Source: a virus
Lineage: Duplodnaviria; Heunggongvirae; Uroviricota; Caudoviricetes
Virus record (IMG/VR): IMGVR_UViG_3300013942_000118
Location: 1 to 9,306 of that record
Length of the DNA: 9,306 bases
Strand: one strand, 5' to 3'
Part shown: in pieces, positions 891 to 6,125 of the stretch
Layout of the letters: the number at the start of each line of letters is the position of its first letter
Numbering within the stretch: the first letter of the stretch is position 1
Program-made: the position numbers and the translations under genes
The notes under the pieces: model-generated
Database searches by the model: none
Told to the model about the DNA's origin: nothing
Seen by the model: the letters and a program-made list of their open reading frames with translations, nothing else

Positions 891-1253
891 TTAACGACCT
901 GCTGCGCGGAGTTTTCCGTCAGGTTCACCGGCAAGAGTCAGTAATTGTCCCTGGTCTTCCTGCAGAATAGTCAGGCGACCACCGCGATTGACATACATCG
1001 GCGTTTCGGTGGTGTCTTCTTCGGAAATTTTCCCGCGGTTAGTCGGGCGAACATATGAGAGTTTGTGTTTGATTTTTACACGGTTCTCATCAAACGGTTC
1101 GATTTCCAGGTTGAGCGAGACCTTACCTTTGGTTTTCGTGTTCATCACACCGGAAGCGACTTCACTGAGAACTGCGCCGATTTTGGTTTCAAATACGCCG
1201 CCGTCCAGCTCCCCGATAAATGCCTGCACATCAGTACTGCGTTCGCTAGCCAT
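891..1253 (-). CDS. Small prophage early protein, 120 aa (YfdP-like by recollection); start chosen at internal ATG
   Basis: The 226-aa track ORF has an Arg/Cys-rich, non-protein-like N-terminal 106 codons. The ATG at 1253-1251 (MASERSTDV...) has a GGGGAG Shine-Dalgarno 7 nt upstream and gives 120 aa directly upstream of, and co-oriented with, the DUF2303 gene. Stop TAA at 893-891. Confidence 0.65.
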   Translation of the reverse strand: MASERSTDVQAFIGELDGGVFETKIGAVLSEVASGVMNTKTKGKVSLNLEIEPFDENRVKIKHKLSYVRPTNRGKISEEDTTETPMYVNRGGRLTILQEDQGQLLTLAGEPDGKLRAAGR

Positions 1254-1271
1254 TTTGCTGCTCCCCATCAT

Positions 1272-1287
1272 ATCGACCCTGCAGGGT
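1272..1287. repeat. 16-bp perfect palindrome CGACCCTGCAGGGTCG in the leader of the leftward early operon
   Basis: Read directly from sequence; lies 19-34 nt upstream of the 120-aa gene start on the minus strand. Confidence 0.8.
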
Positions 1288-1302
1288 CGGTTGGTTTCTC
1301 CA

Positions 1303-1390
1303 CAAAACAGAGAAGAACACCTGCGGTGGCAGCCGCCCGGATGGATTGGGTTATGAGCCCGTCGTCCGGTGATGCTCTTCTCTGTTTTGT
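1303..1390. repeat. 15-bp perfect inverted repeat (ACAAAACAGAGAAGA / TCTTCTCTGTTTTGT) enclosing a 58-nt GC-rich loop
   Basis: Arms at 1303-1317 and 1376-1390 are exact reverse complements; read directly from sequence. Function unknown. Confidence 0.8.
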
Positions 1391-1722
1391 AAAAAGGACG
1401 GTACCAGCCGGAAGCAAGGGTACAAGCTGATACCGCCAGGACTACACACAGCATAAAGTTGTGGTGCCGGGTGCCTCCCGGTGCCTGGCGAAGGTTGCAC
1501 ACCAGGCGGGTGGGTATCCACAGAAGGTCGACTGTCAGCCTCAACCTTAACCCGCGTGCGCTGAGCCGCATTCACCACAACGCTAAGGATTCTCTCTGGT
1601 TGAAAATACTTAGCTGTTATGTGCCTGCTTTTAGCCACATCAGGCGAGGTGGACCTAGTTATTCCCCAACAACAAGGATTTGGTTAATCTGGATATCCCC
1701 AACAACTAGCTGAGTATTCAAC

Positions 1723-2388: not shown

Positions 2389-2425
2389 GGGTACATTATG
2401 TATCTCAAAGGTACATTGTCAAGTA
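2389..2425 (-). promoter_or_regulatory. PL-like leftward promoter with GTAC-containing operator half-sites (OL-like)
   Basis: On the minus strand: TTGACA (complement of 2417-2422), 16-nt spacer, CATAAT (complement of 2395-2400). Overlapped by repeated GGTACATT motifs that match the GTAC cores of the operators at 3152-3223. Confidence 0.45.
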
Positions 2426-2461: not shown

Positions 2462-3136
2462 TTAGGCTTTGATTTTGTATCTTCTTGGTTTTCCTGAGAA
2501 AATCACAGTTCCAATTATAGAGCAATTACCGTTGATCTTAATGTAAGGCTCAGGCCAGTTTGGGTTTAACGCTTTGAGATAACGCTGTGTCCCATCTTCT
2601 ATCAACCTTTTGAAGGTGGTTTCACCTGTATCGTGCATCAATGCAATAACGTCGTCACCGTGGCAGGCAGGTACTTCAGGATCGACAAAAATCATGTCTC
2701 CCGGGCGGTACTCATCAATCATTGAATCACCTATCACCCGCAAGATATAAGTCATTTCCCCACAGGGTACAGGGCAGGGATACGTTTCTGCTGTGCTCAA
2801 ATCAACCTCAGAATATCCAACTTCTTTCCATGCTCCGGCCTGTACCCATGATATGACAGGGACTAATGTGATTTGTTTATTAGTGATTGAAACATCAGGT
2901 TTTTTTGTGATGTTCGTTGTCTGGTGTTCTTGATCGAGCCATCCGACAGGCAGGTCGAAACATTTTTCGATGTGTCGTGCCATGCTGTCACCGATATTTT
3001 TAGTAGCACCATCTCCCATAAACCTGCTGGTCTGGGTTGGCTCGCGATCAATCATAGTGGCAAAGGAAGAATTCCCGCCAACACCATCTCTCAGTTTTCT
3101 GGCGTTAGACCGCCGGATGTCATGGATTGTTTTCAT
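2462..3136 (-). CDS. Prophage CI-like repressor, HTH plus S24 (LexA-like) autopeptidase domain, 224 aa
   Basis: ORF ATG 3136-3134 to TAA 2464-2462. C-terminal half carries an Ala-Gly candidate cleavage site (VQAGAW), the GDSM serine motif and a downstream Lys (TFKRL), typical of the LexA/cI S24 fold. Sits divergent from a Cro-like gene across a palindromic operator region. No Shine-Dalgarno before the ATG. Confidence 0.9.
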   Translation of the reverse strand: MKTIHDIRRSNARKLRDGVGGNSSFATMIDREPTQTSRFMGDGATKNIGDSMARHIEKCFDLPVGWLDQEHQTTNITKKPDVSITNKQITLVPVISWVQAGAWKEVGYSEVDLSTAETYPCPVPCGEMTYILRVIGDSMIDEYRPGDMIFVDPEVPACHGDDVIALMHDTGETTFKRLIEDGTQRYLKALNPNWPEPYIKINGNCSIIGTVIFSGKPRRYKIKA

Positions 3137-3226
3137 AACGAAATTAAAACCCTTGTACCGTTAAGGTACAAGTATCTTGAAGGTTCATTTCAATCATGTA
3201 ATATGTACACCGGAGGTACATATTGT
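3137..3226. promoter_or_regulatory. Divergent PRM/PR-type control region with two palindromic operators
   Basis: Operator 1 is CTTGTACC-N5-GGTACAAG (3152-3172); operator 2 is ATATGTAC-N7-GTACATAT (3201-3223). Candidate PR on plus: TTGAAG (3177-3182), 16-nt spacer, TAATAT (3199-3204), GGAGG Shine-Dalgarno 3212-3216, cro ATG 3227. Candidate PRM on minus: TTGTAC (complement of 3166-3171), 17-nt spacer, TTTAAT (complement of 3143-3148), ending about 6 nt before the repressor ATG. Confidence 0.6.
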
Positions 3227-5799: not shown

Positions 5800-6125
5800 T
5801 GACGACGTTAACTCAATGCCAGCAGCAGGTGCTGGATATGCTGATTTCTTATCAGAAAGAGCGTGGCTTTCCGCCAACCAATCAGGAGGTGGCAACCATG
5901 CTGGGATACCGTTCGGTGAATGCAGCGGTGGAGCATCTTCGCGCACTGGAGAAAAAAGGCGTCATCACGATAAAGCGTGGCGTGGCACGGGGGATAACGC
6001 TTCATACCGCTGTGAAGGACGACGACAGCGAGGCGGTCGGGATTATCCGCGCACTGCTTGCCGGTGAGGAAAACGCCAGGCTGCGTGCAGCCCACTGGTT
6101 ACATGAGAGGGGCCTGAAAGTATGA
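5799..6125 (+). CDS. LexA N-terminal DNA-binding-domain paralogue lacking the S24 peptidase domain, 108 aa
   Basis: Start ATG 5799 overlaps the upstream stop (TAATG). LTQCQQQVLDMLISYQKERGFPPTNQEVATMLGYRSVNAAVEHLRALEKKGVITIKRGVARGITL aligns by eye with E. coli LexA residues about 4-68 at roughly half identity. The protein stops after about 40 further residues with no peptidase motifs. Confidence 0.8.
   Translation: MTTLTQCQQQVLDMLISYQKERGFPPTNQEVATMLGYRSVNAAVEHLRALEKKGVITIKRGVARGITLHTAVKDDDSEAVGIIRALLAGEENARLRAAHWLHERGLKV

Follow-up and report, generated by a model that had tools for sequence, protein, structure and literature searches.

Several described RNA elements stand close to the leader analyzed here. 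The put element of phage HK022 is cis-acting, binds RNA polymerase and needs no dedicated trans-acting protein; its antitermination depends on the zinc-binding domain of the polymerase beta' subunit. Lambda provides RNase III sites in the N leader and at sib, which offer a parallel to one of the duplexes described below, and mRNA mimics of tRNA anticodon arms exist, such as the thrS operator. The put RNA is about 70 nt long and forms two stem-loops right after its promoter (PMC9378689). DicF occurs as a 190-nt species made by RNase III and a 53-nt species made by RNase E (bioRxiv 10.1101/2023.04.14.536235), and PasD, a reported relative of STnc100, is an abundant Hfq-bound sRNA in RIL-seq (bioRxiv 10.64898/2026.05.13.724894). 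In the e14 prophage, ymfH, xisE and intE have been described as one operon listed in the YmfT iModulon (PMC12133099), and overexpression of ymfH has been reported to trigger the retron-Sen2 toxin; beyond this operon and iModulon listing and the retron-trigger screen, our search of the ymfH and yfdP literature returned nothing further.

The window (the whole stretch of 9,306 nucleotides that was analyzed) carries at 1268-1578 a RefSeq/PGAP annotation as a 'frameshifted hypothetical protein' (ymfH). Judged by its sequence, the minus strand of 1270-1615 is instead a non-coding, modular RNA cassette, widely conserved and situated in a prophage early-operon leader. Genome annotation thus mislabels an RNA leader as a broken protein gene.

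Layout of the leader and its modules

Dense conserved secondary structure occupies 1270-1615, and the RNA strand is confirmed as the minus (leftward) strand. For 1254-1625, the minus-strand fold has -162.4 kcal/mol (z = -6.9 versus dinucleotide shuffles), which exceeds chance, whereas the plus strand reaches z = -3.3 only; the G-U pairs and the lower z-score of the minus strand both favour it as the RNA strand. An earlier note on this DNA had proposed a GC-rich structured leader spanning 1254-1722. The conserved structured part is confined to 1270-1615, and the last ~110 bp (1616-1722) lie outside the conserved RNA, in a variable junction where homologues have mosaic breakpoints at about 1652, 1706 and 1721. 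The stretch is indeed GC-rich (55-57% at 1201-1650 versus 38-50% in the flanks), and every sequence feature that had been listed is found, with coordinates off by 0-2 nt: CCGGG-N5-CCCGG at 1467-1481, GCCTGG-N13-CCAGGC at 1483-1507, three occurrences of GTGCC within 1463-1486, and TCCCCAACAAC at 1663 and again at 1696. The 16-bp perfect palindrome CGACCCTGCAGGGTCG exists, but at 1274-1289 rather than 1272-1287. The 15-bp perfect inverted repeat also exists (1302-1316 / 1376-1390) and extends to 25 nt at 84% complementarity, but its supposed 58-nt loop holds two conserved hairpins.

The stretch is non-coding, as the earlier note had held: no ORF is kept, there is no codon periodicity, and the ORFs gave no match in Pfam or NCBIfam. 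A frameshift-free ORF conserved among homologues, named beforehand as the mark of a decayed gene, was looked for and not found. From the YmfH start, the ORF runs to 103 aa in e14 only, to 75 aa in the common type and to 19 aa in Salmonella phage ST64B, and the e14 length is due to the loss of 1 nt from the AGGCA loop of helix P5 (see below), which is otherwise nearly invariant. The leader and that of ST64B share 77.1% identity; their mismatches divide by phase as 27/26/26 and the indels measure 1, 1, 20 and 1 nt, whereas the adjacent yfdP is 60.6% identical with mismatch phases of 28/34/81. Nucleotide conservation of the stretch exceeds that of the flanking genes.

Four modules make up the minus-strand cassette: M1 (1458-1581), M2 (1391-1437), M3 (1302-1390) and M4 (1274-1289). 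The structured RNA proposed by the earlier note is borne out, all helices covarying among relatives. MAFFT misaligned P4, M2 and M4 between lineages, and those helices were therefore analyzed with a custom parser and with permutation controls.

M1 is a pseudoknotted multi-helix domain, identified from covariation, RNAalifold and a helix table as an 'early-operon' variant of the STnc100 superfamily. Helix P1 pairs 1573-1581 with 1458-1466, P2 occupies 1554-1569, P4 1483-1507 and P5 (CCGGG-AGGCA-CCCGG) 1467-1481; P1, P2 and P5 have the support of covariation and are predicted by RNAalifold, and among the 51 sequences of the helix table P1 takes 44 and P4 40 distinct sequences. With 20 early-type relatives aligned (A2), 94.5% of cells are paired, versus at most 44.5% with the partners slid. 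Eight pairs show changes on both sides, and the covariation score of 0.261 (0.141 in shuffles) was equalled in 0 of 500. The pseudoknot joins AAGGUUG (1542-1548) to CAACCUU in the P4 loop (1491-1497), and its partners covary with lineage: CAGUUAA/UUAACUG in Qin, UGGUUAU/AUAACCA in phage P1 and AGACUGACAAA/UUUGUCAGUCU in the Pantoea type. A loop-shuffle control is weak for single sequences, so a cross-sequence permutation test was used instead; the duplex averages 7.28 bp with a sequence's own loop versus 5.20 bp with the loops of other sequences, and the observed total was equalled in 0 of 5000 permutations. An upstream hairpin, GCUAAGUAUUUUC / GAGAAUCCUUAGC (1582-1614, minus strand), is predicted from an inverted repeat and the MFE structure; it is conserved in the E. 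coli type only, and its lack of conservation in ST64B weakens the case for it.

The earlier note had suggested an Rfam scan, which gave nothing at gathering thresholds; in permissive mode, matches to STnc100 and DicF appeared. The STnc100 match (RF02076; 1389-1611, minus strand) takes in M1, the linker and M2, and covers model positions 1-206 of 206 at 40.5 bits, below the gathering score of 47 (canonical late-operon units score 57-79 bits). Its E-value is 2.4e-7 on a 651-nt region and 3.5e-6 on the whole window, of which it is the sole STnc100-like match. P1, P2, P4 and P5 are kept by compensatory changes across canonical STnc100 and early-type members, and M1 is a homolog of STnc100.

M1 is followed by a linker, UUUAUGCUGUGUGUAGUCCU (1438-1457, minus strand), which is single-stranded in the MFE structure of the full leader and is a candidate sRNA seed; a fold of the M2 segment by itself has some of the linker paired to the U-tract region. 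Of 31 divergent leaders with differing upstream domains and terminator stems, at least seven keep GCUGUGUGUAGUC, and others have alternative linker 'alleles'. M2 is a DicF-like intrinsic terminator, starting 20 nt after P1, with a 13-bp stem (1425-1437 with 1397-1409) and then C-UUUUU (1396-1391). The segment that contains it (1385-1458) folds at -23.7 kcal/mol (z = -3.7). The same 31 leaders have 19 distinct M2 stems, nearly all then running into UUUUU(U), most commonly as C(C)UUUUU(U)AC. The DicF model (RF00039) matches weakly at 1396-1450 (20.5 bits against a cut-off of 48, E 0.06 to 0.85), with 28.5 bits for the e14 copy.

M3 is a three-way junction with a 20-bp outer stem and two hairpins, H1 (1337-1369) and the variable H2 (1323-1336). 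It folds at -51.2 kcal/mol (z = -7.8). In an alignment of 23 leaders (A3), 95.8% of cells are paired versus at most 52% when slid, ten pairs show changes on both sides (0 of 500 shuffles reach that), and a conserved U-G pair again places the RNA on the minus strand. More than 120 viral contigs contain the motif ACGGGNUCAUNNCCCAAUC, and no Rfam family matches M3. Directly after it, GGAGAA (1296-1301, minus strand) is conserved as (U)GGAGAA across the A3 leaders; its pairing with the M2 U-tract, seen in the predicted fold, would extend the M3 stem to about 25 bp. A mini-ORF reading (A/G)UG-GAG-AAA after M3 was considered and dropped; its first three codons alone are conserved, without a Shine-Dalgarno sequence. 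The tip of H1 (GGG-CUCAUAA-CCC, 1348-1360) presents an invariant UCAU loop on a GGG/CCC stem, with U33 and CAU invariant in all variants. Over 17 positions, 15 of the tip sequence ACGGGCUCAUAACCCAA agree with UCGGGCUCAUAACCCGA, which we take to be the corresponding part of E. coli tRNA-fMet, including three G-C pairs and the CUCAUAA loop.

M4 is the hairpin CGACCC-UGCA-GGGUCG (1274-1289, minus strand), with a conserved (U/G)GCA loop. It lies 8 nt upstream of the yfdP Shine-Dalgarno sequence GGGGAG (1261-1266), which precedes the ATG (1251-1253, minus strand) of the first ORF after the leader. Fourteen distinct stems occur in the 31 leaders around a constant loop core, e.g. GGCGGU[GGCA]GCCGCC and UGCCAU[UGCA]GUGGCG, and ST64B has a different hairpin in its place. 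M3 and M4 always stand ahead of the first ORF, which is yfdP here, xisE in e14 and an ORF beginning MFNPFFKN... elsewhere.

Outside the conserved RNA, the two TCCCCAACAAC direct repeats (1663-1706, 33 bp apart) sit at mosaic breakpoints. On the minus strand they read GUUGUUGGGGA, which in a post hoc comparison resembles the 5' start of M1, GUUGUGGUGAA. A motif TTGTKGNGRA has four minus-strand occurrences within 1296-1705; this count carries little weight since the motif was defined from those same instances.

The transcript is likely to start at a pL-like promoter, TTGACA-16-CATAAT (2395-2422, minus strand), which matches the consensus at 11 of 12 positions and overlaps operator-like GGTACAT repeats. 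The surrounding 2313-2470 and the ymfK-ymfJ intergenic region of e14 share 94% identity, e14 encodes an identical repressor protein, and repressor operators lie at 2395-2430 and 3155-3220. The stretch thus lies between the pL-like promoter and yfdP, in agreement with its earlier assignment to the leader of the leftward early operon. Directly upstream of M1 we found no promoter, and any RNA would therefore come from a transcript starting ~800 nt away and running antisense through the zinc-ribbon ORF. Leader matches are found in 2860 of 5426 complete E. coli genomes, i.e. the homologous stretch is present in about half, and in 103 phage records.

A model for the cassette and its alternatives

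We consider it somewhat probable that this pL-leader cassette combines an sRNA unit of the STnc100/PasD/DicF kind with a structured 5' UTR, working in a dicBF-like manner. Of the three options put forward in the earlier note (a put-like element, an RNase III site or an sRNA), the sRNA fits best, based on the similarity to STnc100 and DicF and on the internal intrinsic terminator. The 5' half would be the sRNA unit, made of the pseudoknotted M1, the 20-nt variable 'seed' linker and the M2 terminator, and the 3' half (M3 and M4) would be a conserved structured 5' UTR placed before whichever gene comes first. By analogy with dicBF of Qin, loss of the repressor would allow leftward transcription from pL into the cassette. 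A fraction of the polymerases, depending on how efficiently M2 terminates, would stop there and leave an RNA of about 190 nt, which trimming in the A/U-rich linker may convert to a DicF-sized RNA of ~65 nt that could act in trans through the linker. Polymerases that read through would produce the yfdP-yfdQ... mRNA, carrying M3 and M4. The 20-25-bp stem of M3 is a plausible RNase III site in the modelled fold and may act as a 5'-end-stabilising element, with M4 positioned at the ribosome-binding site; the RNase III cleavage-mapping literature that we searched returned DicF by citation only and nothing on e14. The function of both modules in translation or stability is at present a guess.

A purely cis-regulatory leader is a possibility to which we give little credence. 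M1 to M4 would then fold together into a single 5' UTR that senses a signal or binds a factor, an attenuator of the riboswitch-like or protein-binding sort with M2 as its terminator, and the early-left genes would be regulated with no trans-acting RNA. The order aptamer-like domain, short linker, intrinsic terminator is that of a transcriptional attenuator, M3 and M4 precede the first ORF in every case, and in Qin and phage P1 the domain is placed immediately before the ribosome-binding sites of dicB and tciA, without a terminator, an arrangement no less compatible with cis than with trans action. Alternatively, AAGGUUG of the pseudoknot can pair with the nearby UCGACCUU, a possible switch, but ST64B has this local hairpin in weakened form and Qin lacks it. 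By eye, the 3' side of M1 showed no stretch complementary to the terminator stem that could form an antiterminator. The canonical relatives are moreover stand-alone tandem units with nothing downstream to regulate, and the reported relatives were detected as Hfq-bound sRNAs.

It is similarly doubtful that M1 is a cis-acting processive antiterminator, either put-like or acting jointly with Nus factors and a boxA-like site. Modification of the polymerase by the nascent RNA would permit read-through of M2, later terminators and the Rho sites of the long untranslated leader, replacing an N protein. Indeed, no N-like gene is evident after the leader, the first ORF varying between phages, and downstream of M1 stands a conserved intrinsic terminator, which polymerases must cross to reach any early-left gene. 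The M1 loops and junctions are nearly invariant over wide divergence, as expected of a protein- or polymerase-binding surface. Such conservation exceeds what a simple 5' stabiliser would need and hints at a specific ligand or protein partner. In a lambda-type nut site, boxA (YGCUCUUUA) is followed by a boxB hairpin, and an arginine-rich N protein is the first pL gene product. The boxA core UGCUCUUU precedes M1 in phage P1, Pantoea and other relatives, but the motif is degenerate in the window (AUCCUUAG). HK022 put resembles M1 in being a structured nascent RNA in the early-operon leader of a lambdoid phage, but M1 is 124 nt long, pseudoknotted and ~800 nt from pL rather than adjacent to the promoter. 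A blastn search of the leader against HK022 24000-32600 (the immunity region, with putL and putR) gave nothing better than E 1.7. The window has no second leader copy in the rightward operon (one STnc100-like match, no internal repeat). A put-like antiterminator, as suggested earlier, is therefore not supported. Furthermore, in Qin the domain is placed after the DicF terminator, and antitermination would be pointless for each unit of the canonical tandem domain-plus-terminator arrays downstream of Q.

Less likely still is a joint reading in which M3 and M4 are a new class of phage cis-RNA mimicking the initiator-tRNA arm, M1 is an antiterminator and the triggering of retron-Sen2 is an RNA effect. 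If this were true, the UCAU loop on its GGG/CCC stem would engage the translation-initiation machinery or a tRNA-directed enzyme, M3 and M4 serving for example as a decoy for a VapC-type anticodon nuclease, and a polymerase- or Nus-bound M1 would let lambdoid phages that lack N transcribe past the terminator in their own leader.

Action of the repeats in DNA, as operators, recombination sites or an origin, is very improbable. The stretch does contain perfect palindromes, mosaic breakpoints cluster at the module edges and the two TCCCCAACAAC repeats are three helical turns apart, but the stems are maintained by G-U pairs that only one strand allows, the pseudoknot and the hairpin-specific loop conservation have no rationale in DNA, and the operators of the repressor are elsewhere; a DNA-level role is possible for the 1663-1706 repeats only. 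Finally, a decayed protein gene, as the PGAP call and the 103-aa YmfH annotated at the corresponding position of e14 in E. coli K-12 would have it, is hardly to be entertained given a frame that is not kept, an intact e14 ORF that stems from a single deletion, substitutions that are compensatory base-pair changes and lack the codon periodicity so strong in yfdP, the want of any matching protein family, and nucleotide conservation above that of the flanking genes.

The YmfH of K-12 and the derived pseudogene calls in many E. coli genomes would accordingly be re-read as RNA, not protein. The pseudoknotted domain is now defined for direct testing, as is the still unclassified three-way junction with its tRNA-like loop, and the cassette is an obvious place to test how N-less lambdoid phages achieve early-left expression through a conserved leader terminator.

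Comparison with described RNAs

The H1 tip of M3 shares with the anticodon arm of initiator tRNA-fMet a GGG/CCC stem and a CUCAUAA loop, but M3 has no acceptor, D or T arm. ARAGORN and the Rfam tRNA model found no tRNA and no cloverleaf in the leader. A tRNA or tmRNA identity, considered after a blast match beside tRNA-Arg in Klebsiella phages, was dropped, ARAGORN finding neither. The lambda N leader and sib are comparable to M3 as a long duplex: the M3 outer stem is nearly perfect over 20-25 bp, belongs to a putative pL transcript and lies just upstream of the ribosome-binding site of the first ORF. M3 differs in being a three-way junction with sequence-invariant apical loops, and in leaving the ribosome-binding site unsequestered.

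M1 has in common with STnc100 and the related PasD sRNAs of lambdoid and Stx prophages the closing helix UGGUG...CACCA, the P5 hairpin CCGGG-AGGCA-CCCGG and the pseudoknot topology, and its P2 loop UNAGC is found in part of the canonical units. The order of domain, linker (roughly 25 nt in canonical units) and intrinsic terminator is likewise the same. The P2 stem and central region of M1 nevertheless define a distinct 'early-operon' subtype, GGUGAAUGCGGCUNAGCGCACGCGG. Canonical units lie between Q and the lysis genes, whereas the element here is in the pL leader and has no detected promoter of its own.

DicF differs from the present unit in its linker (UGCUGUGUGUAGUCCU here versus UUUCUGGUGACGUUU in DicF), alignment similarity being confined to the hairpin, and its targets ftsZ and manX therefore cannot be assumed. 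The upstream domain also differs, being of the STnc100 type here and not of the Qin type. A different domain, enclosed by the same GUUGUGG...CCACAAC helix, stands ahead of the DicF-type hairpin in Qin and other phages; in Qin it fills the sequence before the 53-nt DicF, and we equate it with the published 190-nt species. The early-type M1 domain is itself present in Qin, between DicF and dicB, and in phage P1, directly upstream of tciA. What the locus shares with dicBF is an RNA within a repressor-controlled early-left operon of a lambdoid prophage, a hairpin GGCGGUAUCAG...CUG..CCGCC followed by a U-tract, and a structured domain of ~130 nt directly upstream, which together would give a precursor of ~190 nt with the terminator at its 3' end. 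On this comparison, DicF, STnc100/PasD and the ban-operon leader of phage P1 would join the present cassette in a single modular family of prophage RNAs, within which domains, seeds and terminators are exchanged.

Coding potential and prophage setting

The structured part (window 1270-1615) of the stretch at 1254-1722 is a genuine RNA, conserved and non-coding, that has been misannotated as protein. One portion belongs, as a divergent member, to a prophage sRNA superfamily that is known though poorly understood; the other is an uncatalogued motif. All of the repeats named in the earlier note, which had proposed a GC-rich structured leader from the sequence alone, are present with shifts of 0-2 nt, and the stretch is indeed richer in GC than its flanks. 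The segment 1254-1625 folds at -162.4 kcal/mol on the minus strand (z = -6.9), with z = -3.3 for the plus strand. Of 5426 complete E. coli genomes, 2860 carry a homologous segment, as do 103 phage records, among them SfV, SfII, SfIV, ST64B and, for part of the segment, P1-like phages.

RefSeq labels 1268-1578 on the minus strand a "frameshifted hypothetical protein", and the homologous segment of e14 is annotated as YmfH, a protein of 103 aa. A coding reading is rejected on the unkept frame, the even spread of mismatches over codon phases and the absence of protein-family matches. When a conserved frameshift-free ORF was sought in homologues, the frame starting at the YmfH initiation codon reached 103 aa in e14-type copies only; it stops after 75 aa in copies of the common type and after 19 aa in ST64B. 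Compared with this Salmonella phage, the leader is 77.1% identical, its mismatches fall 27/26/26 by phase without codon periodicity, and its indels measure 1, 1, 20 and 1 nt; for the neighbouring gene yfdP, only 60.6% identical, the phases are 28/34/81. Pfam and NCBIfam searches with the ORFs of the stretch, YmfH among them, returned no match. The e14 ORF itself arises by a 1-nt deletion in an AGGCA loop that is nearly invariant in other copies: this copy (L003 2500-2811, K-12 ymfH) has GGCA in the loop of hairpin P5, and UAAU instead of UCAU in the loop of hairpin H1, losses of invariant bases that fit decay in a cryptic prophage. A preprint describes triggering of the retron-Sen2 toxin by "ymfH" overexpression and, since the stretch reads as RNA here, the effect may be due to the RNA.

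The prophage in the window is lambdoid, of the CPS-53/e14/SfV/ST64B kind. Leftward yfdQ (1-825) and yfdP (891-1253) lie on one side of the leader; on the other are a rightward, plus-strand zinc-ribbon ORF (1723-2244, with its own terminator at 2286-2305) and ymfK (2462-3136), encoding a LexA-like repressor identical to the e14 repressor of E. coli K-12, with a cro-like gene next. Operator-like palindromes, GTACCGTTAAGGTAC and GTACACCGGAGGTAC, occupy 3155-3169 and 3205-3219 between the repressor and cro genes. A near-consensus minus-strand promoter, TTGACA-16-CATAAT (2422-2395), overlaps GGTACAT repeats, and the surrounding ~160 bp (2313-2470) share 94% identity with the region between ymfK and ymfJ of e14. 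We take this promoter as pL, which would place the leader on the pL transcript, ~800 nt downstream of pL and past the antisense zinc-ribbon ORF. That ORF, antisense to the presumed transcript and missing at the same place in e14 and ST64B, looks like an inserted moron, and convergent transcription against pL is possible. Near it, direct repeats of TCCCCAACAAC (1663-1673 and 1696-1706, 33 bp apart) coincide with mosaic breakpoints among homologues (~1652, 1706 and 1721) and may be scars of module junctions or the binding site of a protein; their minus-strand reading, GUUGUUGGGGA, resembles the M1 5' start GUUGUGGUGAA in a post hoc comparison.

The STnc100-type domain

A permissive Rfam search, one of the checks suggested in the earlier note, gave a single STnc100-like match in the window (RF02076, full length, 1389-1611), whose 40.5 bits (E 2.4e-7) fall below the family cut-off of 47 bits. 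The frame UGGUGAAU...CCGGGAGGCACCCGG recurs at >120 loci in a pattern scan of viral contigs. Most of these are canonical units (57-79 bits), flanked by the Q antiterminator and the lysis genes and often in tandem, each consisting of a domain, a ~25 nt linker and an intrinsic terminator. The window domain, M1 (1458-1581, minus strand), is a distinct early-operon subtype (GGUGAAUGCGGCUNAGCGCACGCGG), found by genome scan and blast in e14, SfV, ST64B and prophages of Pantoea, Mixta, Klebsiella, Raoultella and Enterobacter; it adjoins tciA, directly upstream, in P1 and SJ46, and in Qin lies between DicF and dicB.

The fold of M1 comprises a closing helix P1, a helix P2 with loop UNAGC, a variable insert, a hairpin P4 and, one nucleotide later, P5 (CCGGG-AGGCA-CCCGG), while the segment after P2 forms a pseudoknot with the P4 loop. 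Among 20 early-type relatives, 94.5% of cells are paired, versus at most 44.5% with the partners slid. The compensatory changes expected of true stems are present, with eight pairs altered on both sides in M1: P5 is CCUGG/CCAGG in Qin and UCGGG/CCCGA in Enterobacter, and the P1 helix of phage P1 reads GUUGCGGUG/CACCGCAAC. Pseudoknot partners change together as well (AAGGUUG/CAACCUU in the window, CAGUUAA/UUAACUG in Qin, UGGUUAU/AUAACCA in phage P1, AGACUGACAAA/UUUGUCAGUCU in Pantoea), giving 42 distinct duplexes among 51 sequences. Duplexes with a sequence's own loop average 7.28 bp versus 5.20 bp with the loops of others, and the observed total was reached in 0 of 5000 permutations. Kinship of the sequences inflates such statistics, yet the duplexes include many independent ones. 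The M1 junctions and the loops of P5, H1 and M4 are kept invariant, presumably through some partner.

The late region of the window has features of its own. The Q-like antiterminator, probably a pseudogene of a defective prophage, is broken by an in-frame TGA at 8485-8487 (...IICG*MARL...; ORFs 8305-8487 and 8488-8697). The tR'-like terminator downstream of Q (8793-8825) caused a spurious sub-threshold match to "Betaproteobacteria toxic sRNA", and an IS3-family orfA (8998-9306) truncates the late region where related phages carry canonical STnc100 units. A run of 10 N (6370-6379), masked or unresolved, falls within the plus-strand ORF 6122-6394. Elsewhere, isrK in ST64B (64 bits, L004 5232-5308) and isrI among the STnc100 units arrayed in a viral contig (60 bits, L072 5220-5316) exceed the Rfam threshold; small-RNA genes are closely packed in such phage regions.

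Terminator, junction and hairpin modules

Twenty nucleotides after P1, beyond a linker (1438-1457), the M2 hairpin (1391-1437) forms 13 bp followed by C-UUUUU; its segment folds at -23.7 kcal/mol (z = -3.7) and weakly matches DicF in Rfam. M2 is a conserved intrinsic terminator. The 31 divergent leaders show 19 different stems, nearly all of them with a UUUUU(U) tract directly behind, usually as C(C)UUUUU(U)AC.

What had been read as a 15-bp repeat enclosing a 58-nt loop proves to be a three-way junction, M3 (1302-1390), whose 20-bp outer stem reaches ~25 bp once the M2 U-tract pairs with a conserved GGAGAA (1296-1301), and which carries H1, with tip ACGGGCUCAUAACCCAAUC, and a variable H2. M3 folds at -51.2 kcal/mol (z = -7.8). 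Across 23 divergent leaders 95.8% of cells are paired, versus at most 52% with the partners slid, and ten pairs are altered on both sides, a number that none of 500 shuffles attained. In 20 of the 23 a U-G pair is kept; the minus strand is therefore the RNA strand. The H1 motif, with its UCAU invariant and adjacent loop positions variable, occurs in >120 viral contigs, and M3 nearly always lies downstream of a terminator (a U-tract stands <=70 nt upstream of H1 in 90 of 108 non-redundant cases). On its 3' side follow GGAGAA, the M4 hairpin (1274-1289; 14 different stems, the same (U/G)GCA loop), a Shine-Dalgarno sequence and the first ORF, which is yfdP-like, an MFNPFFKN... ORF or, in e14, xisE. 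Phage P1 and one Pantoea-type contig have an M3-like element upstream of M1, so the modules are shuffled. No Rfam family matched M3 or M4. The H1 tip agrees at 15 of 17 positions with the anticodon arm of E. coli initiator tRNA; ARAGORN found no tRNA. In some variants (viral contigs L240, L180, L171 and L186) the H2 loop reads (A/G)AYUCCUAAC, which looks both like an anti-Shine-Dalgarno sequence and like a CCU-bearing anticodon loop; M3 in these variants shows two tRNA-like loops.

Possible mechanism and the DicF comparison

The best-supported reading, which we hold to be probable though by no means assured, is a cassette working like the dicBF operon. Beyond structure, homology and context, the mechanism that we infer would begin with pL transcription running into the leader. 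A stop at M2, with processing by RNase E/III, would yield an STnc100/DicF-type RNA in which the linker might act as seed, and read-through would produce the early-left mRNA with M3/M4 at its head. The linker core GCUGUGUGUAGUC is retained across leaders with different upstream domains and terminator stems, and alternative linkers occur in others, a pattern shown by the seed regions in families of small RNAs. PasD, reported relatives, are abundant Hfq-bound sRNAs (bioRxiv 10.64898/2026.05.13.724894).

Cis-acting antitermination, the main rival, appears unlikely. The first ORF after the leader is not N-like, all early-left genes must pass the terminator located downstream of M1, and the M1 loops are nearly invariant, all of which would suit it; yet the put-like element suggested earlier bears no likeness to HK022 put and has no copy in the rightward operon of the window, the Qin domain is placed after the DicF terminator, and downstream of Q the canonical units are arrayed in tandem. 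Also on the side of antitermination is a boxA-like UGCUCUUU(CC)GUUG, which in many relatives stands directly before the helix that closes M1 or the Qin-type domain (P1 L006 1955-2030; Pantoea L139 and L164; L177 and L191) and is degenerate in the window; it may be a Nus-factor site shielding long untranslated RNA cassettes from Rho. That the stretch is purely a cis-regulatory leader is similarly doubtful; an element acting at the DNA level is very improbable, and a decayed protein-coding gene, given the unkept frame, even more so.

Qin and several phages carry a different domain 5' of the DicF-type hairpin, bounded by the same GUUGUGG...CCACAAC helix. This second conserved, structured domain, GUUGUGGYAAYCCGCGAAAUGGCGCGGCGGUAAGUAUGG...CCACAAC (Qin L129 2230-2383, upstream of dicF; also L177, L188 and L191), fills the slot of M1 before DicF-type hairpins and, at the Qin locus, has no Rfam match at E <= 0.1. 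Published DicF includes a 190-nt species with its 5' end made by RNase III and a 53-nt form made by RNase E (bioRxiv 10.1101/2023.04.14.536235). We equate the Qin-type domain with the body of that 190-nt precursor, and M1 and M2 of the window together likewise span ~190 nt.
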